A stretch of DNA of 64,000 nt from a virus (IMGVR_UViG_3300024988_000067), one strand, 5' to 3'; positions 6,936 to 41,551 are shown, counted from the stretch's first letter. Notes: a model not told the origin generated them from the letters alone. Program-made: numbers and translations.

Positions 6936-7270
6936 GCGAGGACAGGGTGGTTTGCATGAGGGGGAGGTCTGGCAACGATGCGCTGTGGGATTGGTTCGGC
7001 TCGAGCCGGGCTTGTTGGCTAACGCTGCCCCGGGTGCTGATGCATTCGATGCCAGACGACTGGCAGGAACGCATGGCGGGGCTGCTGTGCGAGTTCGACC
7101 AGGAATTTCCAAACCAGCCTGAGCTGTGCACGCGAGTGAGCATCACCGATCACGGGGGGCGCCGTATGGGTTATCCATCGTGGCTGGTGGACTACCGTCA
7201 TCCGGACCGTAGCGCGGTCAATCGCATGCGCGGGCCTTCGATGGTGGAGGTGTCGAATGGCAAAAAATGA
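6932..7270 (+). CDS. Conserved phage hypothetical protein
   Basis: WLTLPRVLMHSMPDDWQERMAGLL motif; ATGA coupling. Confidence 0.65.
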   Translation: MSEDRVVCMRGRSGNDALWDWFGSSRACWLTLPRVLMHSMPDDWQERMAGLLCEFDQEFPNQPELCTRVSITDHGGRRMGYPSWLVDYRHPDRSAVNRMRGPSMVEVSNGKK

Positions 7271-7715
7271 CCGTCTGGTGAAGGCGTGGAAGATGCGGCG
7301 CGATGTTCATGCCTGGATCGAGGCCAACCCGGATTGTTCGATGCCCGAGATCAAGCGGAATTTCAGCAAGATTAACCCGGAGACGGTGCGCTGGGTGGTG
7401 AAGCGTCTCGTGCTGGCCAAGCTGGTGCAGGCGGAATCCCATTGCTATCGGGCGCTGCGTGAGTTCGACCAGCCCATGGAAGCGGCGCGCGACAGGTTGC
7501 GTGAGGGTGGGCGTGCGTCGGGCAGGGTGCAAGGCTTGACGAATGCATCCCGCACCAGGAATCCGGACGGCACTTTCGCAGCAGTTCATGCCGGGACAAA
7601 TCGTGTGAAATATATAAACCGCCCGGCAGTCAAGCGAGCGATCCCGAATCAGGGCGGGCAGGGTGCAGGCGGCGCGTGGCGCGGCGGACGGTCGTCGCTG
7701 ATGATGGTTGGATAA
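7257..7715 (+). CDS. Putative winged-HTH DNA-binding protein
   Basis: VHAWIEANPDCSMPEIKRNF...PETVRWVVKRLV. Confidence 0.55.
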   Translation: MAKNDRLVKAWKMRRDVHAWIEANPDCSMPEIKRNFSKINPETVRWVVKRLVLAKLVQAESHCYRALREFDQPMEAARDRLREGGRASGRVQGLTNASRTRNPDGTFAAVHAGTNRVKYINRPAVKRAIPNQGGQGAGGAWRGGRSSLMMVG

Positions 7716-29589: not shown

Positions 29590-29790
29590 CCAAAATCACT
29601 TGCAAAACGATTGCGTAAGTATTTGATTTTATTAAGTCGCAAATAGCTGTTTTTGGCTGTAAAATTGATCCTTAAAAATAGCGTAAGGCATTGAATTAAA
29701 TGGATAAAATAAGAGTTCTAATGATCTGCATGGGCAATATCTGAAGCCAGCGTGGTTATTGGCCTTGCAAATCCATTGCAAAGAATTCTC
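29590..29790. other. attP-like site (AT-rich, IHF consensus, core probably within 29727-29743)
   Basis: Downstream of int; rc(29616-29628) = AATCAAatacTTA matches WATCAANNNNTTR; repeated TTGCAAA; contains a host-gene fragment. Confidence 0.7.
29700..29744 (+). pseudogene. 5' fragment of a low-molecular-weight protein tyrosine phosphatase gene (MDKIRVLMICMGNI*)
   Basis: Matches the LMW-PTP/ArsC N-terminus ..VLF(V/I)CMGNICRS; TGA where TGC is expected. Confidence 0.75.
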
Positions 29791-29801
29791 AAAACGAACC
29801 G

Positions 29802-30272
29802 CTATTTCTTAAGCGGAATGCCCGGCTTCGGCGGGGCGAAAATCTCCTTGCCTCTGACCCCTTTGTGGTACCTGTAGTAGAGTGTCCGGTATGGGATGCC
29901 GGTGGCATCGGCCCAGCCTTTTATCGTTCTGCGCACGCCGTCGATCTCGAGGAAGCAGTTGTTCCGCTTGTTTTCGCACTGGGTTTGCATGGACACCCAG
30001 CGGCAGTTGTCCGGTCCATAGCCCGCATTGTTGTTGGCCCGGTCCAGGGTGAGGCCGGGCCTGTATCCGTTCTCCAGCGCCCATATCTCGAAGGACAGGA
30101 AGGAGCTTTGCCATTCCTGGCAAACGCTTATCCCGCGCTCGCCGTAGTTGTGGAAGACCTCGGCCGTCTCGTTCATGCACCGGTACATCATCGAGCGCCA
30201 AACCCTGTAGAGGCTGCTCTCGGCGAGGTCTTGCCCGGTTGCACCGTGGCGCTCGTATCGGCGCTTCGTCAT
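29802..30272 (-). CDS. HNH homing-endonuclease-like protein
   Basis: LYRVWRSMMYRC...NYGERGISVCQEW...LTLDRANNNAGYGPDNCRW; ATGA-coupled to the int stop. Confidence 0.85.
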   Translation of the reverse strand: MTKRRYERHGATGQDLAESSLYRVWRSMMYRCMNETAEVFHNYGERGISVCQEWQSSFLSFEIWALENGYRPGLTLDRANNNAGYGPDNCRWVSMQTQCENKRNNCFLEIDGVRRTIKGWADATGIPYRTLYYRYHKGVRGKEIFAPPKPGIPLKK

Positions 30273-31447
30273 CCCACCTGCACCCTGACCCACTCCGCCC
30301 CGCGGGCGTCCTTGTAGATTGCGGTTGAACGGGGGTCTTTGTGGCCCAGCAGCAGCTGGGTATTGACGTTCCCTTGGTCGTTGTAGAGCCGTTCCGCCAG
30401 GGAGCGCAGTTCGTGGAAGCTGGGCGGGGTTTTGCCGGTTTCCCATAGGGGCGATTCGCTGCGGCTGGCGGCGAGGTCGCGGGCGTCGGCGAAGCGGCGG
30501 GTGATGGTATCTATCCACACCTGGTCGCCTGGATTGCAATTGCCGTAGGGACGTGTGTGGTGGACAGCGTAGCGGCTGACGACGGTGTCACGGCAGCGAG
30601 CGATGACTTCGCCGAGTTCAAGGCCGACGACGTCTAGACGCAGACTTAATGGGATGGCGACGCGGTTTCCGGTTTTTTGCTGGATGACGTAGATGGCGCC
30701 GGACTCGACCCAGGCCGAGGCGCCGGCGCGGGGACGGAATTCGATGCAGGCGATGTCTTCGCGGCGCTGGCCGGTGACGATAGCGAGCTCGATGCTGCGG
30801 GCGATCCACGGCGAGTCGAGTTCGAGGCTGGCAGCGTGGATCTGGCGGAAGCTGTCGAGCACCAGGCGGGCGCGCTGCACTTCGACTGACGGCGCGCGAG
30901 TCTTGGCGAATGGGTTGTCGGTGGCGAGGCCTTCGGCGATGGCGGTCTTGAAGATCTCGATTCCTTCGCTGCGCACGGCCAGCGCCATACGTTCGCGCGG
31001 TGGATCTGATTCGAGGTAGGCGGCGAGGATCTCTACGGCGTCGCGTACGCTGAAAGCGTCGATCGGCAGTTTGCCCTTGGCGCGGGTGATGGCGTTGCCG
31101 ATGCTGCGCTTGGTCTTGAGCGTGTTGGCGGCGAGCTTGCCCTTGGCCTGCAACTTCTCGCAGTGCTCGATGTGCTTGAGGATGACGGCGCCGAGGGTAG
31201 GACCGCTGGGCCTGGCTGTGGCGATGGCATCGACGCGCGCGCCGGCGAGCTGGGCGAGGATGGCGGCGTTGAGCGCTTTGGCGTCGGCGATGGCGGAGAC
31301 CTTGTCGCTGCCCATGCCGTGGAAGGTGCCGGTGCGGATGTCCTTGTAGCGGTAATAGGTGCGTCCGCTGGCGCGGTCTACAGTGGCATAGAGGTTGTCA
31401 GGCAGGTCGAGACTGCCCGGGCGGCGGCGGGGTGGCATGGCGGGCAT
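30269..31447 (-). CDS. int: Phage integrase, lambda-type tyrosine recombinase with arm-binding N-domain
   Basis: LPDNLY...YYRYKDIRTG N-domain; TGQRREDI, SFHELRSL, LLGHK, Y catalytic residues. Confidence 0.95.
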   Translation of the reverse strand: MPAMPPRRRPGSLDLPDNLYATVDRASGRTYYRYKDIRTGTFHGMGSDKVSAIADAKALNAAILAQLAGARVDAIATARPSGPTLGAVILKHIEHCEKLQAKGKLAANTLKTKRSIGNAITRAKGKLPIDAFSVRDAVEILAAYLESDPPRERMALAVRSEGIEIFKTAIAEGLATDNPFAKTRAPSVEVQRARLVLDSFRQIHAASLELDSPWIARSIELAIVTGQRREDIACIEFRPRAGASAWVESGAIYVIQQKTGNRVAIPLSLRLDVVGLELGEVIARCRDTVVSRYAVHHTRPYGNCNPGDQVWIDTITRRFADARDLAASRSESPLWETGKTPPSFHELRSLAERLYNDQGNVNTQLLLGHKDPRSTAIYKDARGAEWVRVQVG

Positions 31448-31455
31448 AGTAAACC

Positions 31456-32478
31456 TTATGCGGCGATCCGGTCGAGCGGGCTGATCGCACCGGCGGCGCC
31501 GCGTTTGACGACGTGGGTATAGATCATGGTGGTAGAAACGTCAGAGTGACCGAGCAGTTCCTGTACGGTGCGGATGTCGCTACCTGTTTCGAGCAGATGC
31601 GTGGCGAAGCTGTGGCGGAGGGTATGGCAGCTTGCAGGCTTATGGATGCCGGCCGCGATTACGGCGGCGCGCATGGCGCGCTGGATGCCTTTTTCATGGA
31701 TGTGGTGGCGGCGCACGACGCCGGTGCGTGGATCGGTGCTGTAGTCGGCCGCGGCGAATACGTATTGCCATGCCCATTCCTTCGGCGCGTTCGGATATTT
31801 CTTCCACAGCGCATGCGGTAGTTCGACGTCGACCATGCCGCGCGCGAGGTCGATGTCGTGCATCTTGCGGCGGACGGCGAGCTGATCGCGCAGCGGCTGC
31901 ACCAGGCTGGCAGGTAGCGGGACGACGCGGTCCTTGTCGCCCTTGCCGCCGCGCACCAGGATGATGTTCGAGTCGAAGTCGATGTCCTTGACGCGCAGCC
32001 GCATGGCTTCCATGAGGCGCATGCCGGTTCCGTAGAGCAGCCTGATGATCAGCCCGCTCGTGCCCTTGGTATGGGCAAGCACTGCAGCCACCTCGGACTG
32101 GCTCAATACGACAGGAAGCCGGGCCGGTTTCTTGGCGCGCGTGATGTTGTCGAGCCATGGCAGGTCGATTCCGAGCACATGCTTGTATAGGAAAAGCAGC
32201 GCTGCGAGCGCCTGATTTTGCGTGCTGGCAGAAACGTCACGCTCATTTGCGAGCATCGACAGGAAGGCTTCTATCTCGGGCGCTCCCATGTCGGCAGGGT
32301 GGCGAAGGCCGCTCCAGTGGATGAAGTGCTTGACCCAGCTGATATAGGTGCGCTCAGTGCGCAAGCTGTAGTGCTTGACACGGATCGCCGCGCGCATCTG
32401 GTCTAGCAGCTTGGGCTTGGCGGACACGGATGCCTTGTCCTGCTGCTGTGTCTCGATATGATCGATAGTTTCAGTCAT
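31456..32478 (-). CDS. intI: Integron integrase (not class 1)
   Basis: KHYSLRTERTY, STQNQALAALLFLY, LYGTGMRLME, GKGDKDR, integron-specific insertion LPHALWKKYPNAPKEWAWQYVF...DPRTGVVRRHH, HTLRHSFATHLL, IRTVQELLGHSDVSTTMIYTH all intact. Confidence 0.97.
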   Translation of the reverse strand: MTETIDHIETQQQDKASVSAKPKLLDQMRAAIRVKHYSLRTERTYISWVKHFIHWSGLRHPADMGAPEIEAFLSMLANERDVSASTQNQALAALLFLYKHVLGIDLPWLDNITRAKKPARLPVVLSQSEVAAVLAHTKGTSGLIIRLLYGTGMRLMEAMRLRVKDIDFDSNIILVRGGKGDKDRVVPLPASLVQPLRDQLAVRRKMHDIDLARGMVDVELPHALWKKYPNAPKEWAWQYVFAAADYSTDPRTGVVRRHHIHEKGIQRAMRAAVIAAGIHKPASCHTLRHSFATHLLETGSDIRTVQELLGHSDVSTTMIYTHVVKRGAAGAISPLDRIAA

Positions 32479-32520: not shown

Positions 32521-32569
32521 TTGATAGATTCGCGGACATCAGGGTGTCGTAGAATTTAAGTTAGCGGTC
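32521..32569 (+). other. attI site; crossover G/TT at 32560/32561
   Basis: gtcgtagaatttaaGTTAGCG just upstream of, and divergent from, intI; the core is mirrored by R'' of attC1. Confidence 0.8.
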
Positions 32570-33305
32570 ACAGGCTGCACGTCCTGCATTTGTTGGCTGA
32601 AAACCCAAACAGGTCGCCAGTCAACTCAGTGCCGCGTGGTATCTCGCCGCGCTCAAAAACATCCCGCAGTTCCGCCAGCGAGGCGGGCCAAGTGTCGCGG
32701 CTCGGGCTTCTGAATGTGTGCCCTATCGCCTGCTCCTGTTCCACCGCGTCCTGGTAAATCTCCGGGTGCTCTTTCCACAACATCCACCATTCCGGTAGCG
32801 TCTGGAAAAAACACCTAGCACAGTCCGTTCTTTCTGGTATCTGCACATCCCGATCCATCAAATACCCAAGCACATCACCCAAACCCCAACCCCAATCCCT
32901 GAAAGGGAAGCGAACTTCGCAGTTCTCATAAATCCCGCCCTCGCGGCCTTCCTCATCTGCCCGCAGCCCGATATACAAAACCACCTTGTTTCCCTGCTCG
33001 GCCTGGCGGTTTATCCACTCCTGGCAAGTTTCAATTTTCAAAACCCTAGTGCAAAACCGCTTCTGCCAATTCGGCAGGCATTTTTCCCGTTCGCACAAAC
33101 CCTTAAAATCTACCTCTGCGGTCAGCCGCGTCAGCCGCTTCCCGATCAGGCATTCCAGCCTATCCCAGTGCTCCAGCATCACCGGCAATTCATCGCCGGT
33201 GGGTGTGCACAAAAACACATAGTCCTGCGGCTCAATTTCGGCCAAGCGTAGCGCCAGCGCCGTGGAGTCTTTGCCGCCTGATAAACCAACTACGTGTAGT
33301 TCCAT
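32568..33305 (-). CDS. Cassette 1: PAPS-reductase-family (PP-loop) protein with Cys motifs
   Basis: VVGLSGGKDS, RFCTRVLKI, YIGLRADEEGR, RTDCARCFFQ; RBS GAGGA before MELHVV. Confidence 0.85.
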   Translation of the reverse strand: MELHVVGLSGGKDSTALALRLAEIEPQDYVFLCTPTGDELPVMLEHWDRLECLIGKRLTRLTAEVDFKGLCEREKCLPNWQKRFCTRVLKIETCQEWINRQAEQGNKVVLYIGLRADEEGREGGIYENCEVRFPFRDWGWGLGDVLGYLMDRDVQIPERTDCARCFFQTLPEWWMLWKEHPEIYQDAVEQEQAIGHTFRSPSRDTWPASLAELRDVFERGEIPRGTELTGDLFGFSANKCRTCSL

Positions 33306-33320
33306 GTCATCCTCAAAGAC

Positions 33321-33381
33321 CGCTAACACGGCGGTCAACAGCGACCGCGCGAAGCGCGGCGCGTTACCTTAGTCGTTGGCC
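33321..33381 (+). other. attC1 (61 bp)
   Basis: R'' (gac)CGCTAAC, L'' GGT(C)AAC pairs with L' GTTACC, R' GTTGGCC. Confidence 0.9.
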
Positions 33382-33412
33382 GCCACCTTTGCGCGGTGGC
33401 GGGTTCCTACTC

Positions 33413-33595
33413 TTATGCCGTTTCGAGTGCGCTCTCGTTCCACCAGCTTTCCACGGCGCGGCCGTCGGCGGCTTTGTAGCGCAGCAGGTAGCTGTTCCCA
33501 CCTACCGCGTATTCCGCTCTGGCGATAATGCTGCCCGTTTCACCGCTGGCCGAAATCTTCACGGTCTGGTTCATGCTGAAGGTAAATCCGTTCAT
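33413..33595 (-). CDS. Cassette 2: small phage-type protein (60 aa)
   Basis: ORF track; fills the cassette. Confidence 0.7.
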   Translation of the reverse strand: MNGFTFSMNQTVKISASGETGSIIARAEYAVGGNSYLLRYKAADGRAVESWWNESALETA

Positions 33596-33639
33596 TTGCT
33601 GCCCCTGTTCAAAATGCCGTGCCTTCGTTTGGGCGGCAC

Positions 33640-33703
33640 GGCCAACCCGTTAATCAAGCGGGACCGGCGCTAAAGCGCCGGCCCCTTATTGCTGTCGTTG
33701 GGC
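33640..33703 (+). other. attC2 (64 bp)
   Basis: GGCCAAC, AAT(C)AAG/CTTATT, loop gcgctaaagcgc, GTTGGGC. Confidence 0.9.
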
Positions 33704-33912
33704 ACCTCATCATTCAGCTTTGCCAGCAGCTCCGGGTGAACAAACAGCGTGTTGCCGCTTCGGTACATTGCTGGCCTGTCGATCCGGTGCTTAACCACCA
33801 GCCAGTTGCGGCGGCGCTTCTTTATCGGGTTCCGCTCGATGCGCCACACAGTCCGCACTTCGCGGGCCATCGGTGCGCTCACAACGGTCAATCCGTAAAT
33901 CGTTCGGTTCAT
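33670..33912 (-). CDS. Cassette 3: hypothetical protein (MNRTIYG...), stop lies in attC2
   Basis: RBS GGAGAGG; ends VPNDSNKGPAL*. Confidence 0.7.
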   Translation of the reverse strand: MNRTIYGLTVVSAPMAREVRTVWRIERNPIKKRRRNWLVVKHRIDRPAMYRSGNTLFVHPELLAKLNDEVPNDSNKGPAL

Positions 33913-33932
33913 GGTTTCCTCTCCGGGCCAGT

Positions 33933-34019
33933 GCCCAACAATCCGGTCGAGCCGAGGCCCGCCAGCGTCTTTAATCCTTGCCGTGTTCCGTAAGGCCCGG
34001 CTCACCGCAAGCGTTCGGC
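33933..34019 (+). other. attC3 (87 bp)
   Basis: GCCCAAC, GGT(C)GAGC/GCTCACC, GTTCGGC. Confidence 0.9.
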
Positions 34020-34273
34020 GTCAGCTTCACGAATCCTCGGGCGACCATGTACGGGTCGCGCTCTGGGTGATACCGCCGCGCTTCAATGTTCTTCGCCGGC
34101 TTCAGGCTCAACATCCGCCGCCAGTATTTTCCGCAGGCCAGCGCCCGCTCGTGGTTCGCGGCCGCCACGTAAACCGAGCTGCCGCACTGCTTGCCCTTGC
34201 GGTCTATCGGGTACACCTCCCACTGCAATCGTTCGGGGTTCGCGCCCCACTTTCTCGGGTCGTCGTAGCTCAC
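33971..34273 (-). CDS. Cassette 4, ORF b (GTG start, 100 aa), stop lies in attC3
   Basis: GTGA overlap with ORF a; ends TPNACGEPGLTEHGKD*. Confidence 0.65.
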   Translation of the reverse strand: MSYDDPRKWGANPERLQWEVYPIDRKGKQCGSSVYVAAANHERALACGKYWRRMLSLKPAKNIEARRYHPERDPYMVARGFVKLTPNACGEPGLTEHGKD

Positions 34274-34488
34274 AGGTCTTTCTCCATCACTCGGCACGGC
34301 CAGTGATGGCCGCAGTTTGCACAGGCGGCTGTGTCCAGCCGGGTTGTTTTCAGCGCGGCCGGCGATCCGTTGGCCATCAGCCAGTGGTAGGCGTGGCGTC
34401 CGCAGCGCGGGCACCGGCGCTCAATCTTGGCCGGCAGCCGCCGAACCCGTCGCTCCAGAGGGACGCCCTCCATGCCGCTTCGCGTCAT
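34270..34488 (-). CDS. Cassette 4, ORF a: CxxC...CxxC zinc-ribbon protein, start inside attC4
   Basis: CPRC...CANC; RBS GGGGAGA and ATG lie within attC4. Confidence 0.6.
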   Translation of the reverse strand: MTRSGMEGVPLERRVRRLPAKIERRCPRCGRHAYHWLMANGSPAALKTTRLDTAACANCGHHWPCRVMEKDL

Positions 34489-34518
34489 TCCGGTCTCCCC
34501 TGATCTAGTGCGTTAGGC
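34440..34518 (+). other. attC4 (79 bp)
   Basis: GCCGAAC ... GTTAGGC; L boxes imperfect. Confidence 0.75.
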
Positions 34519-34803
34519 ATCGTCATGCTCTTGTTCACGCATCGCCATATCAATCGCGTCCCGCAGGCTGTGCAGGTTCGCGGTCACGCAATGGGTCGGA
34601 AGTTGCACGTTGCCCACAGGGTTGTCCGGGTCGCTCAACCAGTCCAGCCGTGCCGCATCGGCACGCAGTCTTTTGTTCTCGCGCTCCAGTTCGCGCAGCT
34701 TGTTCGCCGCCTGCCTCATCGCCTCTGCCTTTACTGGCGTGGTCGCCCTATTGGCTTCGCGGTCCAGGTAGCCCGCATATCGTTGTGCCATGCTCATCTT
34801 CAT
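34513..34803 (-). CDS. Cassette 5: phage-type coiled-coil protein (DAARLDWL motif)
   Basis: Stop TAA is formed by the cassette core TTA. Confidence 0.75.
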   Translation of the reverse strand: MKMSMAQRYAGYLDREANRATTPVKAEAMRQAANKLRELERENKRLRADAARLDWLSDPDNPVGNVQLPTHCVTANLHSLRDAIDMAMREQEHDDA

Positions 34804-34810
34804 CCTCTGC

Positions 34811-34871
34811 GCCTAACCCGGCGCTCAAGCGGGACCGCGCTAAAGCGCGGCCCCTTAGCTATGCGTTGGGC
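34811..34871 (+). other. attC5 (61 bp)
   Basis: GCCTAAC, GCT(C)AAG/CTTAGC, loop gcgctaaagcgc, GTTGGGC. Confidence 0.92.
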
Positions 34872-35116
34872 CACTCTGCAACCGTGGTCACGTCTTTCGA
34901 TGCGCCGCACCTCTTGCAAAGGTAGCCGGTGGTTGTCCACTTCAGTCCGTCGCCGTCCGGGTCAAGGTCGAGCGATCCGCTTGTGATTGACCATCGGTGC
35001 AGCCCTAGCGCACAAAGCAGTGGTGTGTATCCAATTTTTGCGGCCAGCGTTTGCAGCCCAACCCGGCAGTCGAGCGGAGGCTCGGCAGCGGCTTTGTGGT
35101 CTTTGCTATCGTTCAT
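34859..35116 (-). CDS. Cassette 6: Cys/His small protein (85 aa), start in attC6 and stop in attC5
   Basis: MNDSKDHKAAAEPPLDCRVG...LCALGLHRW...CKRCG...WPNA*. Confidence 0.7.
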   Translation of the reverse strand: MNDSKDHKAAAEPPLDCRVGLQTLAAKIGYTPLLCALGLHRWSITSGSLDLDPDGDGLKWTTTGYLCKRCGASKDVTTVAEWPNA

Positions 35117-35145
35117 TCTCGCCCTCGCTAACTTTTGCGTTGGGC
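35056..35145 (+). other. attC6 (90 bp)
   Basis: GCCCAAC, AGT(C)GAGC/GCTAACT, GTTGGGC; near-identical to attC7. Confidence 0.88.
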
Positions 35146-35357
35146 ACCTTGCATTTAGGAATCTCGGTTGCCATTGCGCGGCCCTCGTATGTGTCGCGCC
35201 GCCACCACCAGTATTCCGCGCCATCAAATCCGCAATGCACGCAGCATCCGTCATCGTCCCATTCGTGGCCGTTGTTCAGGGATCGCTTAGTCCGTTGCCC
35301 AACCCGGCAGTCGAGCGGAGGCTCGGCAGCGGCTTTGTGGTCTTTGCTATTTTCCAT
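35106..35357 (-). CDS. Cassette 7: zinc-ribbon small protein, start in attC7 and stop in attC6
   Basis: GHEW....CCVHCG; ends VPNAKVSEGENER*. Confidence 0.7.
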   Translation of the reverse strand: MENSKDHKAAAEPPLDCRVGQRTKRSLNNGHEWDDDGCCVHCGFDGAEYWWWRRDTYEGRAMATEIPKCKVPNAKVSEGENER

Positions 35358-35386
35358 TCTCGCCCTCGCTCACTTTTGCGTTGGGC
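35297..35386 (+). other. attC7 (90 bp)
   Basis: GCCCAAC, AGT(C)GAGC/GCTCACT, GTTGGGC. Confidence 0.9.
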
Positions 35387-35580
35387 ACCGGGTCATATTG
35401 ATACTCAAACCCATCGCACTTGACCCCTTCGTCGCCTCGCATCATTTCCATAGTCAGGCCACACGCGCCCGTAATGATCTCGTGCGGGTAATCCGGTATG
35501 AAGTGCGTGCAGTTCTGGCATATGCGGTCGCAGTTACACAAACCGGGGAAACACTTTTCGCAAAACGCAAACGTAACCAT
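35347..35580 (-). CDS. Cassette 8: Cys-rich small protein, stop lies in attC7
   Basis: CEKC...CNC..ICQNCTH...GAC...KC; ends VPNAKVSEGENGK*; start uncertain. Confidence 0.65.
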   Translation of the reverse strand: MVTFAFCEKCFPGLCNCDRICQNCTHFIPDYPHEIITGACGLTMEMMRGDEGVKCDGFEYQYDPVPNAKVSEGENGK

Positions 35581-35586
35581 TTCAGT

Positions 35587-35648
35587 GCCCAACAAGTTAA
35601 TCGAGCGGGACCGTCGCAAGCGCCGGCCCCTCATTGCTGGCGTTCTGC
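35587..35648 (+). other. attC8 (62 bp)
   Basis: GCCCAAC, AAT(C)GAG/CTCATT, GTTCTGC. Confidence 0.9.
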
Positions 35649-35932
35649 GGAATTTCCGCGCTGTCATGCGGTAGCTTCCCAACTTGTCGCAAATAGCCGA
35701 TATAGTTTTCGTCCGCCACTAATGAGACGCACATCAGTTCATATGGTCCTTTGTACGCCGTGCGCGGCACCTCGCCGGGCGCGGACTCCGGTTTTTCAAG
35801 GCACTTGAATCCGATGCTGAAAACAAACCCTGGAATCATCGGCAGCGCGTCGGCGCGAATCTTCAGTTCGCCAATCACCTTGTCATTTAGGAAACTCTCC
35901 AGAACCGGCACCGTTATAAATTCATCTTTCAT
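35597..35932 (-). CDS. Cassette 9: hypothetical protein (111 aa), stop lies in attC8
   Basis: RBS AAGGA; ends PQNASNEGPALATVPLD*. Confidence 0.75.
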   Translation of the reverse strand: MKDEFITVPVLESFLNDKVIGELKIRADALPMIPGFVFSIGFKCLEKPESAPGEVPRTAYKGPYELMCVSLVADENYIGYLRQVGKLPHDSAEIPQNASNEGPALATVPLD

Positions 35933-35965
35933 TTTTTTGTCCTTTCTTCGTAGTTACCAAATTCC

Positions 35966-36028
35966 GCAGAACACAACGCTCGTGTGGGACCGCCGCTAAA
36001 GCGGCGTCCCCACAGCTAAGCGTTGGGC
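35966..36028 (+). other. attC9 (63 bp)
   Basis: GCAGAAC, GCT(C)GTG/CACAGC, loop gctaaagc, GTTGGGC. Confidence 0.9.
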
Positions 36029-36231
36029 ACCAGGCCATGCTGCGCAAACAGTGCAACGTCCTCGGCGTCCGCAAACTTTGTTCCGCCGCCTTGCGAGTAC
36101 AGGCTGCGGACGGCTGGTGTCGCATGCCCTTCCTCGCGCAGCAATACGGCCACGGCGCAGTAGTAGCCGCGCGACCACTCGCGGCTTGCGATGTCGTCGA
36201 TCACCTTGTTAATCCGGTCGGCAAATGCCAT
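36016..36231 (-). CDS. Cassette 10: hypothetical protein (MAFADR...), stop lies in attC9
   Basis: RBS AGGAG; ends VPNA*. Confidence 0.7.
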   Translation of the reverse strand: MAFADRINKVIDDIASREWSRGYYCAVAVLLREEGHATPAVRSLYSQGGGTKFADAEDVALFAQHGLVPNA

Positions 36232-36248
36232 GTTCTGCTCCTGTTCGT

Positions 36249-36308
36249 GCCCAACCATTTATTCAACTCGGACGCGCTAAAGCGCGCCGGTTATGTCAAG
36301 CGTTAGGC
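36249..36308 (+). other. attC10 (60 bp)
   Basis: GCCCAAC ... loop gcgctaaagcgc ... GTTAGGC; L boxes imperfect. Confidence 0.82.
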
Positions 36309-36596
36309 ACACAAACGCAGTGCATCAATGGCATTGATTGCGGCGGCCTTATCTGAGTCGGGTGCCGGTGTGGAGCGAATAGCGATCTCCATTGCGTCCA
36401 GCTCCTCTTTTGTGCTGGCTCCGATCAGTCCGGCCAGTGCATTACGCAGCCGCTCAATCTTTTGCTCTGCCTCGCGCATAGGATGTTTCTCGCAATTCTT
36501 TATGTGTTCAGTCAACAGTTCATGCTTTGCGGCTGGTGTTCCGTCTGGGTATTGGTGCCCGCAATAAACACAGGTTACAACATTGTTTTCACTCAT
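36303..36596 (-). CDS. Cassette 11: zinc-finger-like (CVYC...HIKNC..H) phage-type protein
   Basis: Stop TAA is formed by the core TTA. Confidence 0.75.
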   Translation of the reverse strand: MSENNVVTCVYCGHQYPDGTPAAKHELLTEHIKNCEKHPMREAEQKIERLRNALAGLIGASTKEELDAMEIAIRSTPAPDSDKAAAINAIDALRLCA

Positions 36597-36616
36597 AATT
36601 CAATTCTCCCAAAAGT

Positions 36617-36692
36617 GCCTAACAAGGCAAATTAACTGCGACCGTTCCGGTCGCTGCGCTCCCTACACGTCGCGTTATTTGCAACGTTAGCC
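36617..36692 (+). other. attC11 (76 bp)
   Basis: GCCTAAC, AAAT(T)AAC/GTTATTT, GTTAGCC. Confidence 0.88.
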
Positions 36693-36878
36693 GCCACGTG
36701 TGCCGCCCAATTCGCGCAGCTTGTCGCATACCCATTGTGGGTCTGTCACGCTACCGCCAGGCATCACTTCGATTGCCCGGTTTAGTGCGGCCTTCCACGC
36801 AGCGCGCGCAACCCATTCCTGTGCTTCTGGGTCGTATTTCATCCCTTCGCGTTCAAACCATTGTTCAAATTCGTCCAC
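36687..36878 (-). CDS. Cassette 12: small phage-type protein (GTG start)
   Basis: FEQWF...VARAAWKAA; RBS GGAGAG lies inside attC12. Confidence 0.7.
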   Translation of the reverse strand: MDEFEQWFEREGMKYDPEAQEWVARAAWKAALNRAIEVMPGGSVTDPQWVCDKLRELGGTRGG

Positions 36879-36965
36879 GTCTAACTCTCCATTCCAGGCG
36901 AGGCCGTGGAGCAGCCTTCACCCATAGTTGTGTTCTTTCGGCCCGCCTAAATTTCAGCGTTGGCC
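36879..36965 (+). other. attC12 (87 bp), last attC of the array
   Basis: GTCTAAC, ATT(C)CAGG/CCTAAAT, GTTGGCC. Confidence 0.78.
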
Positions 36966-36969
36966 GTCA

Positions 36970-37611
36970 CTACGCCGCCACCGGGAACGTGCGTTGCACT
37001 TGGATGTGCCGATCCTTCACGCGCTCATCCGTCATCACGGCTCGCGGGCCGCGCCGGTAGAACTGAAGCGCCAAGCTCAGCGCCGCGCCCCACTGCGCGC
37101 CCGAGAGACCGATGGCGCGGATGCGTGCGTTGGCAAAGCCCGCTGTCTCAATCTCTTCGCGGTCTCGCTCCCACGCTTCGCGGTCGTCCCACGTTTCCGG
37201 TTCGTACTTCCGCTCCAACAGGTGCCGCAGAATCTAGGCCGCCGTGATGTGAATGCACTGCTCGTAGCCGGGGCCAAAGCCTCCCATTTCAATGCTCCAG
37301 CAGGTTCCGCCGTCGTCCCACCGCTTCAGCCAGTCCGCAGCGTCAGCGCCGTAGGTGTCGATCTCGTGCTTTTCCTTGTCCTCGGCTTCGGTGCGATAGA
37401 ACACCTTCTGGCCGTCGAGAAACAGGCCGCGCACCGTGAAGCCGATTCCCTTGCCGTAGAAGCGCGCCGTCATGCCCTCTGTCGGTACCACGGGAGAGGG
37501 CGCAGGAACGTAAAAGCTCCAGCCGTCAGCCCGCTCGATGCTCCAGCCTTTGCCCTCGTCGCGCACTTTGGCGACTGTGGTTTCTTCAAACTGCTCGTCA
37601 TTCGGGTACAT
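36970..37611 (-). pseudogene. Hypothetical gene interrupted by one in-frame TAG (37234-37236)
   Basis: ...CIHITAA*ILRHLLERKYE... continues in the same frame to 36970. Confidence 0.7.
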
Positions 37612-37636
37612 GGTTTTCCTTTCGTTGTAAGTTGCC

Positions 37637-37852
37637 GTGCCGGCCAACCATCCAAACAGGGGGCCGAAATGCCCCTCTGCAAATCCAGCGCCAGCAGAAA
37701 TCCGGGAGGCCCGCGAAGCTGCTGGGATGTCGCAAACGGCGGCTGCATCCCTCATCCACTGCACCCTTCGCGGGTGGCAGGAGTGGGAGGCAGGCAACCG
37801 CAAAATGCACCCGGCGTTCTGGGAACTGTTCCGCATCAAATCAGCCCTCTAA
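37637..37852 (+). CDS. Small XRE-family HTH protein
   Basis: ANHPNR...EIREAREAAGMSQTAAASLI...WQEWEAGNRKMHPAFWELF. Confidence 0.75.
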   Translation: MPANHPNRGPKCPSANPAPAEIREAREAAGMSQTAAASLIHCTLRGWQEWEAGNRKMHPAFWELFRIKSAL

Positions 37853-37854
37853 CA

Positions 37855-38091
37855 TCACGCTGCCGCCCTGAATATCACGGCTGCCCGATCGGACAGATTC
37901 ACGATTGCCCTGTCCGCTGGTGCAGCCTGCGCATGGGTATAGATGGCGTCGCGCTCGACATACCAGGTGCGGCCGGCTTTGATTGGGGCGGGCTGGATGT
38001 GGCCTGAGCGGGCCCAGGCGCGCAGGGTTGGCAGGGTCGGCTGGGGGTCGAAATGCAGGGCTGCCCAGGCTTCTAGGGTGATGCGTTTCAT
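37855..38091 (-). CDS. xis: Excisionase (lambda-like Xis)
   Basis: MKRITLEAWAALHF..QPTLPTLRAWARSGHIQPAPIKAGRTWYVERDA. Confidence 0.85.
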   Translation of the reverse strand: MKRITLEAWAALHFDPQPTLPTLRAWARSGHIQPAPIKAGRTWYVERDAIYTHAQAAPADRAIVNLSDRAAVIFRAAA

Positions 38092-38561: not shown

Positions 38562-39149
38562 CTAAATTCGACCACCCACAAGCTGCAATTCCAGCGCCAT
38601 ATCCGGAGCGCAATCAGGATTGCGCGGCCGGACAACGGCTGCCATCTTGTCGACGTTGAGGTCGCCCAAGAAACTCGCGATCTGTTCGGCGGTGACGCGC
38701 GGCCTTGCGATCATGTCCTCGAAGCGAAGGTCGAGGATGTGCTTGACGCCTGCCGTTCGCAGCGAGCGAACAGCTAATATCACATCTTCCTTGAAGGAAC
38801 GGGCGAGGGTCGCACGATATTCCCGATTGACTGGAAGCCCCATCATTTCACGAAGGAATTTCGCGTGTGACTTGGCCTGCTCCATTGGATCGCGCCTGCA
38901 CCATATCGCCTTCGTACTGATTCCATTGGGAAGTGTGTATGTCTGCGGATCAAGCAGTTTGAGTGCATGGCCGCTGATTCCGTGCAGACGTTCAGCATCA
39001 ATGAATTCTGGTTTCACGATATCGGATGCCTCGAATGCTGGATATTCGCCTGTTACGGGCATGCCGCCTGCTTCCAGCATTTGCATGACAAGCGATGATC
39101 CACAGCGCCCGAAACCACATACGAGGGTGATGGATTCGTGTGTGTTCAT
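38562..39149 (-). CDS. Sulfotransferase-family (P-loop) protein
   Basis: VCGFGRCGSSLVMQML (5'-PSB-like), WCRRDP (3'-PB-like), LRFEDM. Confidence 0.7.
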   Translation of the reverse strand: MNTHESITLVCGFGRCGSSLVMQMLEAGGMPVTGEYPAFEASDIVKPEFIDAERLHGISGHALKLLDPQTYTLPNGISTKAIWCRRDPMEQAKSHAKFLREMMGLPVNREYRATLARSFKEDVILAVRSLRTAGVKHILDLRFEDMIARPRVTAEQIASFLGDLNVDKMAAVVRPRNPDCAPDMALELQLVGGRI

Positions 39150-41504: not shown

Positions 41505-41551
41505 AATTATTCATACATGTATTAGATATGTCAATACATGCATGAATAATT
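41505..41551 (-). promoter_or_regulatory. pL-like promoter/operator (copy B); the copy directly upstream of the cassette array
   Basis: Repeat of 2756-2802. Confidence 0.8.

Follow-up and report, generated by a model that had tools for sequence, protein, structure and literature searches.

Organization of the integron

The window, a 64,000-nucleotide stretch of viral DNA (IMGVR_UViG_3300024988_000067), holds a temperate siphophage of 38.7 kb with genes for a replication initiator, TerL, portal, major head protein, tape measure, and tail. The prophage is integrated beside uvrB, the junction with the uvrB region lying at about window position 29710 (contig L111). Between the phage xis and int genes is a complete integron, composed of an integron integrase (IntI), a conserved attI site, and 12 attC sites. 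The features that flank or open the cassette array are as follows:

30269..31447, minus strand: lambda-type tyrosine integrase (int), context; PF09003 arm-binding domain (1.7e-16) and PF00589
31456..32478, minus strand: integron integrase IntI, 340 aa; TIGR02249
32479..32560, plus strand: attI; two CAGRTTnGCGGACA direct repeats and core ...AATTTAAG|TT
32561..33375, minus strand: cassette 1; PAPS-reductase-like ORF 32568-33305(-), attC 33321-33381(+) by model R1
37855..38090, minus strand: excisionase (xis), context, 78-aa gene call; PF07825 (1.2e-14), phrog_629 (2.7e-17)
41506..41534, minus strand: sigma-70-like promoter match, candidate only, facing the early-left gene string; TTGACA-17-AATAAT, 11/12

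The integrase that adjoins the array is a clear integron IntI, scoring 476 bits against TIGR02249 (cut-off 265) with 59% identity to IntI1. The attI site is conserved among seven phage-clade loci (alignment A2), with conservation ending at the GTT crossover, the G of which is position 32560. All 12 attC sites lie on the plus strand and score 52-66 bits each with R1, a model that also picks up attC in annotated aadA, aac(6'), and arr-3 cassettes. They show the R''/R' boxes and imperfect stem expected of integron cassettes, and their extra-helical bases occur on a single arm, here the 5' arm of the plus strand. The excisionase gene forms the upstream end of the gene string xis-cassettes-intI-int. 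In relatives, intI adjoins ORFs resembling other phage recombinases, as named by eye from sequence. Cassette 1 carries a PAPS-reductase-like ORF with matches to PF01507 (4e-5) and phrog_424 (3e-30).

Contents of the cassette array

A reading of the DNA from sequence only had described ORFs of 60-111 aa at positions 33376-36959. This interval coincides exactly with cassettes 2-12, whose limits are set at the G|TT crossover in each attC R' box, and its eleven cassettes do carry 12 minus-strand ORFs of that size (in order 60, 80, 72+100 in one cassette, 96, 85, 83, 77, 111, 71, 97, and 63 aa). The DAARLDWL and FEQWF...AAWKAA motifs noted in that reading are likewise present.

33376..33697, minus strand: cassette 2; 60-aa ORF 33413-33595(-), attC 33640-33703(+)
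33698..34013, minus strand: cassette 3; 80-aa ORF 33670-33912(-), attC 33933-34019(+)
34014..34512, minus strand: cassette 4, two genes; 72-aa ORF 34270-34488(-), 100-aa ORF 33971-34273(-), attC 34440-34518(+)
34513..34865, minus strand: cassette 5; 96-aa ORF 34513-34803(-) with DAARLDWL, attC 34811-34871(+)
34866..35139, minus strand: cassette 6; 85-aa ORF 34859-35116(-), attC 35056-35145(+), 90 nt
35140..35380, minus strand: cassette 7; 83-aa ORF 35106-35357(-), attC 35297-35386(+), 90 nt
35381..35642, minus strand: cassette 8; Cys-rich 77-aa ORF 35347-35580(-), attC 35587-35648(+)
35643..36022, minus strand: cassette 9; 111-aa ORF 35597-35932(-), attC 35966-36028(+)
36023..36302, minus strand: cassette 10; 71-aa ORF 36016-36231(-), attC 36249-36308(+)
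36303..36686, minus strand: cassette 11; 97-aa ORF 36303-36596(-), attC 36617-36692(+)
36687..36959, minus strand: cassette 12; 63-aa ORF 36687-36878(-) with FEQWF...AAWKAA, attC 36879-36965(+)

As for the CxxC or zinc-ribbon motifs also noted in that reading, at least one CxxC occurs in five of the 12 ORFs, two of which have two, and the 72-aa ORF weakly resembles a TFIIS-type zinc ribbon (Pfam E 0.0015, PDB 1qyp E 0.0036). The two genes of cassette 4 overlap by a GTGA stop/start.

Such ORFs could be shadow frames of G+C-rich DNA, the cassettes being either non-coding or coding on the plus strand. The G+C content is 55-64%, and long plus-strand ORFs are present (e.g., 34987-35808), but the plus-strand ORFs extend across attC sites. 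The minus-strand frames, by contrast, are preceded by a Shine-Dalgarno-like motif in 11/13 array ORFs (cassette 1 included) and have GC1 > GC2 in 11/13, and 9 of the 12 ORFs have protein-level relatives elsewhere, with conservation in the minus-strand frame; identities to relatives run from 45 to 100%. Two are also predicted to fold confidently, with pLDDT values of 93 and 81. These properties indicate that the minus-strand ORFs are not chance frames. Gene calls made independently on identical public contigs returned the same ORFs and strand, apart from the 96-aa ORF being called as 94 aa, and we regard the shadow-frame explanation as extremely improbable.

Reversed orientation of the cassette genes

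Every ORF of the array (13/13) runs opposite to the attC top strand, pointing toward intI and sharing the strand of xis, intI, and int. The arrangement by which cassettes are classically recognized, a promoterless sense ORF lying 5' of its own attC and read from Pc, is not seen here. As a strand control, R1 hits in annotated class 1 integrons were on the same strand as the genes, at the 3' side of aadA5, aac(6')-Ib-cr, arr-3, and aadA16, and near 45 related intI genes R1 hits were opposite intI in 161 of 161 cases. Together, these results indicate that the attC/intI geometry is canonical and that the ORFs alone are reversed.

Strand calls based on codon scores gave reverse:forward counts of 8:0 in the window, 37:4 in 15 viral contigs, and 7:1 at four near-IntI MAG loci, where each comparison locus retrieved by homology to the cargo, as many were, is bound to hold one reversed cassette or more. 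The chromosomal arrays, classed by IntI identity only and possibly including prophages, yielded 15 reverse and 33 forward calls (Fisher p = 1.3e-10). The conserved protein frame was reverse in 20/21 phage-phage cassette pairs and forward in 4/4 chromosomal pairs. Reversed arrays were also seen beside IntI proteins of 59-61% identity. In two cassettes the ribosome-binding site and start codon, along with the first 20 residues, come from the attC; the start codons of the 85-aa and 83-aa ORFs lie within their own attC sites.

Cassette exchange and affinities of the cargo

The cassettes behave as discrete mobile units. Contig L094 shares exactly window positions 34509-34867 (cassette 5, 34513-34865) and nothing else, and contig L110 shares exactly 35378-35644 (cassette 8, 35381-35642) within a different array; the ends of both shared segments lie no more than 2-4 nt from the G|TT crossovers. 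The 241-bp unit of cassette 7 is missing from the otherwise identical contigs L112, L116, and L117. Nine of the 12 ORFs turn up again, as reversed cassettes, in other arrays of viral or metagenomic origin, a figure for phage-phage sharing that is inflated by the retrieval of many comparison loci through homology to the cargo itself.

Relatives known as cassettes include the 72-aa/100-aa pair, which is kept in L014, L108, and L109 and lies in arrays with opposite-strand attC at 8/8 metagenome loci scanned. Relatives of the 63-aa ORF (L105-L107) are all in arrays with opposite-strand attC, and those of the 85-aa ORF (L146, L147) have an attC immediately upstream on the opposite strand. The 111-aa ORF has six homologs only, one of which, in L132, occupies a reversed cassette next to phage early genes.

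Affinity to phage families, or a place in early or replication regions, was found for 4/12 ORFs, three by PHROG match and one by context only. The 60-aa ORF (phrog_8618, 2.6e-28) is related to small early ORFs lacking attC in Burkholderia phages Bcep176 (gp32) and phiBt-TXDOH, in phiP27, and in Yersinia phages. The 96-aa ORF belongs to the phrog_37882 family (486 cluster representatives, with the PHROG matched by 62/66 aligned members); it occurs in reversed cassettes in L094-L097 and in one copy without attC among RusA and DnaB genes. The 97-aa ORF, which combines a C2HC zinc knuckle with helices (the AF2 model with pLDDT 81), matches phrog_38675 weakly (1.7e-4). It is a reversed cassette in L098 and lacks attC in L099-L104, and where the neighbors are readable (L100-L102) it sits among MazG-, kinase-, methylase-, and helicase-like ORFs, as named by eye. 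The 80-aa ORF has six homologs among 5.8 billion proteins, one of which lacks attC and neighbors ERF, Gp157, and HNH in the early region of a phage.

The remaining ORFs have relatives as cassettes only, on plasmids, or none. The 71-aa ORF has 22 homologs; phage contig L130 carries one as a reversed cassette, and some lie in attC-free small-ORF operons of Acidovorax and Alicycliphilus plasmids. Another relative is located beside SSB, KfrA, and topoisomerase. In all, five ORFs have relatives without attC, located either in the early regions of phages or in small-ORF operons of plasmids. The attC-less relatives in phage early regions support, indirectly, the passage of genes between cassette and non-cassette phage contexts. 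The earlier suggestion that phages could be both donors and users of cassettes has this indirect support, for passage in one direction or the other.

In chromosomal integrons in general, small ORFs of unknown function are the rule. The array might be a captured piece of chromosomal integron, with ordinary bacterial cassettes carried passively and unrelated to phage biology. The attC type and IntI are indeed near those of Beta- and Gammaproteobacteria chromosomal integrons, small proteins of unknown function are what most cassettes encode, wherever they occur, and such captures are documented in Vibrio anguillarum phages (Qi et al. 2023, PMC9892861). Against this, all 12 cassettes are reversed while related chromosomal arrays are mostly forward, the layout recurs in many viral contigs beside apparently different phage recombinases, and attI is conserved within the phage clade. 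The cargo, moreover, has relatives in phages but not among 100 chromosomal cassettes: a comparison of 89 phage-array with these 100 cassettes gave 0 homolog pairs, itself weak evidence as cassette pools are very diverse. No forward chromosomal array holding any window ORF was found when best homologs in forward arrays with non-phage functions were sought. The cargo is also smaller than that of related chromosomal integrons (median 83 vs. 141.5 aa) and richer in CxxC. Passive carriage thus appears decidedly unlikely, and the data support a cargo that is phage-type and unlike that of related chromosomal integrons. The sequence-only view of a phage-specific pool, atypical of bacterial cassettes, agrees with these results, in that the cassettes are shared only with phage-borne arrays, always reversed, and have relatives in PHROGs and phage contexts.

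Predicted functions and expression

Searches for function returned little for the window ORFs themselves. None matched Pfam at the curated cut-off (10 ORFs at E<=0.1, 2 at E<=0.01), the 10 ORFs scanned with PADLOC at E<=0.01 had no match, and NCBIfam gave nothing credible for six ORFs at E<=0.01. As the sequence-only reading had also noted, resistance, toxin-antitoxin, GNAT, and defense families had no match (Pfam, 12 ORFs; PADLOC, 10; NCBIfam, 6). Pfam and PHROG likewise matched no window ORF to known anti-defense families (Lar, orphan methyltransferases, Ocr/Ard, Acr), phmmer did not link the zinc-ribbon ORFs to the Lar cassette of L130, and the two confident models had no structural relatives at E<=0.001.

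The wider pool is more informative. Of 76 ORFs from other phage arrays, those with Pfam matches fall into three DNA methyltransferase families, Lar_restr_allev, PAPS_reduct, DHH/DHHA1, and DUF7736, with PHROGs adding Lar-like assignments for two members of the pool. The methyltransferases are orphan, and annotated members are a minority. The 94 chromosomal ORFs from arrays with related IntI matched Mrr, NA-iREase1, TIR, HicA, Imm33, Imm8, VanY, and others. The few identifiable genes of the phage pool would thus appear to counter bacterial restriction. Based on this annotated minority (methyltransferases, Lar) together with position and orientation, the window cargo most likely serves in host takeover or counter-defense, above all against restriction. 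Host takeover or anti-defense had been proposed as a possibility from sequence at the outset; the family matches that point to it come from elsewhere in the pool, and no window ORF matched a known anti-defense family.

The int end of P2-like and lambdoid prophages is a common place for moron and defense genes. Being situated at that end of its prophage, the array could instead be a gene bank expressed in the prophage state to the benefit of the lysogen, through superinfection exclusion or anti-phage defense. All 12 ORFs are without assigned function, and two preprints (bioRxiv 10.1101/2024.07.02.601686, 10.1101/2024.07.02.601719) describe cassettes with defense systems. Single ORFs of 60-111 aa are, however, small for defense systems, the 10 scanned have no PADLOC match, and the annotated pool members (orphan methyltransferases, Lar) act against restriction. 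All ORFs also follow xis in one direction, and a simple scan found no promoter-like site on the ORF strand inside the array. We therefore consider lysogenic conversion an unlikely role.

Beyond the anatomy, orientation, cassette sharing, and phage affinity observed here, we think it probable that cassettes 2-12 are small accessory genes of phage kind, drawn from a phage-integron pool and forming an IntI-exchangeable early set for takeover or counter-defense. The pool would circulate among integrons of temperate phages, separate from the bacterial chromosomal pool. With each gene antisense to its own attC, the attC precedes the gene as a leader, and the whole array reads the same way as xis, intI, and int. 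It would most likely be transcribed within the phage early-left operon during infection or induction. Promoter-like sites in the early-left region showed no excess over shuffled sequence in a consensus scan, and a Pc-like match within the intI 5' end (32435-32462, plus strand, 9/12) would transcribe the antisense strand of the cargo. IntI could excise and reorder units and import them at attI, providing the phage with an exchangeable early gene set.

More tentatively, and with slightly less than even confidence, we suggest that temperate phages of Beta- and Gammaproteobacteria keep an integron lineage of their own, with inverted cassettes, attC as 5' leader, expression from the early operon rather than Pc, and a private pool for counter-defense and takeover. 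If true, such a lineage would mirror the defense gene banks of bacterial integrons, and would place both sides of the arms race on the same recombination platform.

Comparison with known systems

The array shares with chromosomal and mobile integrons (class 1, the Vibrio superintegron, Xanthomonadales/Betaproteobacteria types) the IntI family, attC architecture, G|TT boundaries, and attC strand relative to intI. There, each gene follows the attC top strand, sits on the 5' side of its attC, and is expressed from Pc, whereas here the genes are antisense, 3' of attC in the mRNA direction, and directed toward intI. The phage pool also differs in content, its annotated functions being anti-restriction where chromosomal integrons carry defense, toxin-antitoxin, and immunity proteins, with no overlap in cargo families.

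In size (60-110 aa), single direction, and proximity to xis/int, the genes resemble non-essential small early genes of temperate phages such as the lambda b-region/ea genes and Bcep176 gp22-gp43, and relatives of the 60-, 80-, 96-, and 97-aa ORFs are located in such regions. The early genes of those phages abut or overlap without recombination sites and change by illegitimate or homologous recombination; unlike them, each gene here is a discrete IntI-mobilizable unit. A likeness also exists to small-ORF operons of conjugative plasmids, as relatives of the 71-aa ORF in Acidovorax carolinensis and Alicycliphilus denitrificans lie in long, one-directional operons of 55-200-aa ORFs. These operons, possibly leading-region anti-defense islands, differ in lacking attC, having only Shine-Dalgarno spacers between genes.

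Integrons and attC clusters in phage genomes were described by Qi, Rajabal, Ghaly, Tetu, and Gillings (2023, Front Microbiol, PMC9892861), whose cases are fragments captured from Vibrio chromosomal integrons, P1-borne class 1 integrons, a single inactive Shewanella prophage, and clusters without IntI in virulent phages. Orphan DNA methyltransferases were among their phage-associated cassettes, with a suggested aid against host defense. A search of that text found "orientation" in a vector description only and no use of "antisense". Like those phages, the present one carries IntI, attI or attC, and cassettes within its genome; not described in that paper are a recurrent lineage at the phage integration module, reversed cassettes, and a cargo pool shared among phages, all three of which are found here.

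A complete integron in a temperate siphophage

The window is made up of a 38,749-bp unit repeated about 1.65 times to give 64 kb, as shown by 25-mer offset analysis (25,224 matches at an offset of 38,749). This phage unit codes for a replication initiator, large terminase, portal, major head protein, tape measure, and tail proteins, together with an excisionase and a lambda-type integrase that carries an arm-binding domain, and an identical sequence was found integrated in a 64-kb metagenome contig. In that contig the prophage ends at approximately window position 29710, about 560 bp past int and roughly 90 bp after an ORF of 156 aa that runs in the same direction, and is followed by uvrB and an aminotransferase gene. 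On the basis of its structural genes, its int and xis genes, and the integrated copy, the phage is therefore a temperate siphophage. Megablast searches with the region found no match among cultured phages, and the nearest relatives of its IntI are in metagenome-assembled genomes named Thiobacillus, Sulfuricella, Nevskia, and Pseudomonadota. The integron is flanked by int and xis and consists of the following features.

30269-31447, minus strand: int, phage integrase gene, one flank of the integron
31456-32478, minus strand: intI, integron integrase gene (TIGR02249, 476 bits against a cut-off of 265; 59% identity to IntI1)
Upstream of intI: attI, two CAGRTTnGCGGACA repeats and the core AATTTAAG/TT
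Between 33321 and 36965, plus strand: twelve attC sites (R1 matches)
About 37855-38090, minus strand: xis, other flank of the integron

In an alignment of attI from seven related loci, similarity ends exactly at GTT. The attC sites were located with R1, a covariance model built from the window's own twelve sites, which on the phage genome returned the same twelve and no others, all on the plus strand. Our own de novo attC detector, which combined AAC...GTT motifs with constrained folding, was dropped in favor of R1 after it produced many false positives and missed five of the twelve sites. Taking the G/TT crossover within each R' box as the cassette end gives cassette lengths of 241-815 bp, and 33376-36959 corresponds exactly to cassettes 2-12.

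Searches by tblastn detected no relative of the phage Int adjoining intI in other loci; the p153 query was matched in three of the comparison loci (L012, L015, and L094). Downstream of intI in five loci (L002, L003, L007, L013, and L015) are ORFs that, as named by eye from sequence, resemble differing phage recombinases, being tyrosine integrases of 314-338 aa and, in L015, a 534-aa serine recombinase. If this naming is right, the integron would stay beside the integration module while the type of integrase changes. Between the last attC and xis (36970-37839, minus strand) are two ORFs without an attC of their own, of 82 and 201 aa by our calls and 82 and 125 aa in public gene calls. The N-terminal part of the larger one is related to the content of a bona fide cassette in the L002 locus (6961-7541), and both may be former cassettes. 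A sulfotransferase-family gene (38562-39149, minus strand) lies in the same gene string as the PAPS-reductase-like ORF of cassette 1 (32568-33305, minus strand); a joint role of the two, such as sulfur-based modification, is possible.

Cargo genes are reversed relative to their attC sites

In two annotated class 1 integrons, R1 sites share the strand of aadA5, aac(6')-Ib-cr, arr-3, and aadA16 and lie immediately 3' of each, and because of this the R1 strand can be taken as the canonical cassette sense strand. Across 45 loci with related intI genes, all 161 R1 sites are upstream of intI and on the opposite strand, and the intI/attI/attC geometry of the window is canonical. Every plausible ORF of the array is on the other strand, in the same direction as intI, and independent gene calls in public contigs of identical sequence likewise all run in that direction (63, 97, 71, 111, 77, 83, 85, 94, 72, 100, 80, 60, and 245 aa). 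The genes are thus opposite to the attC top strand, so that in the mRNA direction every gene has its own attC in front of it; in cassettes 6 and 7, a GAGG motif, the ATG, and 20 codons come from the 90-nt attC.

Strand calls by codon scoring gave reverse-to-forward counts of 8:0 in the window, 37:4 in 15 viral contigs, 7:1 in four metagenome-assembled genome loci with near-identical IntI, and 15:33 in chromosomal arrays with IntI of 52-65% identity, the chromosomal class being set by IntI identity alone. The contrast in orientation between phage and chromosomal arrays is significant (Fisher p = 1.3e-10), with the codon model giving no call for about a quarter of phage-array and half of chromosomal cassettes. 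Among homolog pairs, 20 of 21 between phage cassettes conserve the reverse frame, and four of four chromosomal pairs the forward frame. Codon scoring, gene calls, and frame conservation superseded a rough longest-ORF call.

Cassettes are exchanged among phage-borne arrays

Two comparison loci each share a single cassette with the window and nothing more. The stretch in common with L094 is limited to 34509-34867, which holds the cassette at 34513-34865, and that with L110 to 35378-35644, which holds the cassette at 35381-35642; in both loci the adjoining cassettes differ from those of the window. Cassettes thus move as units and are exchanged among phage-borne arrays, with cargo that is co-directional with xis, intI, and int. 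Three public contigs that are otherwise identical (L112, L116, and L117) lack cassette 7 (35140-35380, 83-aa ORF). This cassette is flanked by two 90-nt attC sites of 96% identity, and its absence could reflect excision by IntI, homologous recombination between the attC sites, or assembly collapse.

Relatives of the cargo ORFs

The twelve minus-strand cargo ORFs of cassettes 2-12 gave the following principal matches.

60 aa (cassette 2): phrog_8618, 2.6e-28
80 aa (cassette 3): six relatives in 5.8 billion proteins
72 and 100 aa (cassette 4): single cassette with stop/start overlap; pair conserved in L014, L108, and L109
96 aa (cassette 5): family of 486 cluster representatives; phrog_37882 matched by 62 of 66 aligned members
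85 aa (cassette 6): two viral contigs, attC directly upstream on the opposite strand
83 aa (cassette 7): compared with family libraries only
77 aa (cassette 8): one viral contig, as a reversed cassette
111 aa (cassette 9): six relatives, one a reversed cassette adjoining phage early genes
71 aa (cassette 10): 22 relatives
97 aa (cassette 11): one reversed cassette (L098) and attC-less copies in six viral contigs of 35-54% G+C
63 aa (cassette 12): three viral contigs, all three in reversed arrays

The sequence-only reading had described the cargo as small phage-type genes lacking resistance, toxin-antitoxin, or GNAT signatures, and this description holds: searches of Pfam, PHROGs, NCBIfam, and PADLOC (the last two on part of the ORFs) found no such match in the twelve ORFs, nor any defence match. 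Elsewhere, nine of the twelve occur as reversed cassettes, and attC-less relatives in phages or plasmids were found for five. Those of the 60-aa ORF are in temperate cultured phages, namely Bcep176 (gp32) and phiBt-TXDOH of Burkholderia, phiP27, and Yersinia phages; in the records examined, those of Bcep176 and phiBt-TXDOH, they lie among small ORFs with no attC detected by R1. One relative of the 80-aa ORF lacks an attC and sits in the early region of a phage, together with ERF, Gp157, and HNH genes. The 96-aa ORF is a reversed cassette in four viral contigs and had no cultured-phage match by tblastn; one member of its family lies without attC among overlapping early genes that include RusA and DnaB. 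Relatives of the 71-aa ORF include members of attC-less small-ORF operons on plasmids of Acidovorax and Alicycliphilus, a gene adjoining SSB, KfrA, and topoisomerase genes, and a reversed cassette carried by a phage contig of 45.5 kb. Neighbors of the attC-less 97-aa copies in the three readable contigs (L100-L102) include, by eye, MazG, nucleotide kinase, and methylase or helicase look-alikes. The 72- and 100-aa pair has attC on the opposite strand in eight of eight metagenome loci scanned, with an IntI of 59-61% identity immediately downstream in L105, L134, L140, and L141. No relative was detected for the 111-aa ORF among viral contigs or for the 63-aa ORF in JGI metagenome contigs.

PHROG matches were obtained for the 60- and 96-aa ORFs and, weakly, for the 97-aa ORF. 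Foldseek returned nothing at E<=0.001 for models of the 96-aa ORF (pLDDT 93; PDB and BFVD) and the 97-aa ORF (pLDDT 81; PDB), the weak rows being uncharacterised phage proteins and C2H2/CHHC zinc fingers. The 97- and 60-aa ORFs had no sequence match in PDB, the 100-aa ORF had no ESM Atlas match above 0.83, and complex prediction for the two cassette 4 products scored 0.01. A likeness of the 111-aa ORF to viral prohead-protease clusters (ESM Atlas, 0.92) involved only about 139 shared features and was taken as chance or very distant.

Three plasmid or metagenome loci (L123:420-7473, L124:1890-10148, and L126:1-6825; plasmids from Acidovorax carolinensis and Alicycliphilus denitrificans, plus one metagenome contig) hold long one-directional operons of at least 20 ORFs of 55-200 aa, each immediately following the gene for a short tyrosine recombinase (219-226 aa). 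Only AGGAAA-type ribosome sites lie between the ORFs, attC sites are absent, and one ORF is related to the 71-aa cassette gene.

Phage and chromosomal cassette pools

Had the best homologs lain forward in chromosomal arrays, the proposal of a phage-specific pool would have been contradicted; none of the twelve cargo ORFs was found in such arrays. Comparing 89 phage-array and 100 chromosomal cassettes gave 21 phage-phage homolog pairs, four chromosomal-chromosomal pairs, and no cross pair; many comparison loci were picked by homology to window cargo, which inflates phage-array sharing and ensures at least one reversed cassette per such locus, while the other cassettes of these arrays are independent. 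Cargo ORFs of the window have a median length of 83 aa, compared with 103.5 aa for other phage arrays and 141.5 aa for chromosomal ones (p = 8e-8), and at least one CxxC motif is present in 6/13, 19/76, and 8/94 ORFs, respectively. Pfam families detected in other phage arrays (76 ORFs) are limited to DNA_methylase, N6_N4_Mtase, Dam, Lar_restr_allev, PAPS_reduct, DHH/DHHA1, and DUF7736; PHROGs additionally gave several methyltransferase families and, in two members, a Lar-like family for restriction alleviation. Families matched by the 94 ORFs of chromosomal arrays include Mrr restriction endonuclease, NA-iREase1, TIR, HicA, Imm33, Imm8, VanY, COQ7, redoxins, and acyltransferases. Thus, the annotated minority of the phage pool is mainly anti-restriction, and the chromosomal pool contains defence, addiction, and housekeeping-like genes.

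In the 45.5-kb phage contig L130 (192-473 and 460-4749), an array of 13 attC, all reversed, lies directly upstream of a terminase gene and includes a cassette with a restriction-alleviation gene of the Lar family. Two very long metagenome contigs, L140 (931,689 bp) and L139 (177,555 bp), hold reversed arrays with the 100-aa cargo gene, presumably in prophages; L140 has an IntI of 61% identity immediately downstream, and L139 a short tyrosine-recombinase match only.

Predicted expression and role of the cassettes

All genes between about 41.5 kb and 29.8 kb run in one direction, a candidate sigma-70 promoter at 41534-41506 matches 11 of 12 consensus positions, and the cargo strand of the array has no terminator-like site except one inside an attC. 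From this arrangement we infer that an early-left phage promoter would read through the array, cassettes included. Cargo products would then act early in infection or induction, with a predicted role in host takeover or counter-defence, and the reversed orientation would be the outcome of selection, the useful promoter being on the far side of the array.

A promoter-like sequence (TTGTCC-16-TATGAT, 9/12; 32435-32462, plus strand) is located within the 5' end of intI and points toward the cassettes, in the position that Pc occupies in class 1 integrons. Transcription from this sequence, if it is active, would yield RNA antisense to all cargo genes.

Comparison with known integrons

Integrons are bacterial devices that store resistance genes and, as recently recognized, also defence genes. 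Should phages operate a parallel integron stocked with a separate pool of small early genes, the many unexplained early-region microgenes would gain a defined exchange mechanism, and phage cassettes would become a natural pre-packaged library, each unit under 500 bp, for screening counter-defence or takeover. The uniform antisense layout also bears on the old open question of how cassettes arise and are selected; if selection is responsible, attC-to-gene orientation would be set by the location of the useful promoter rather than by the recombination machinery. A full-text literature search found no description of the lineage, the antisense cargo, the shared pool, or the early-gene links. Integrons and attC clusters in phage genomes were reported by Qi et al. 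2023 (PMC9892861), who noted orphan methyltransferase cassettes and proposed a benefit against host defence. New relative to that work are a recurrent phage-borne lineage at the integration module, uniformly antisense cargo, a cargo pool common to phages and disjoint from that of related chromosomal arrays, and the links of cassette genes to ordinary phage early-region microgenes.
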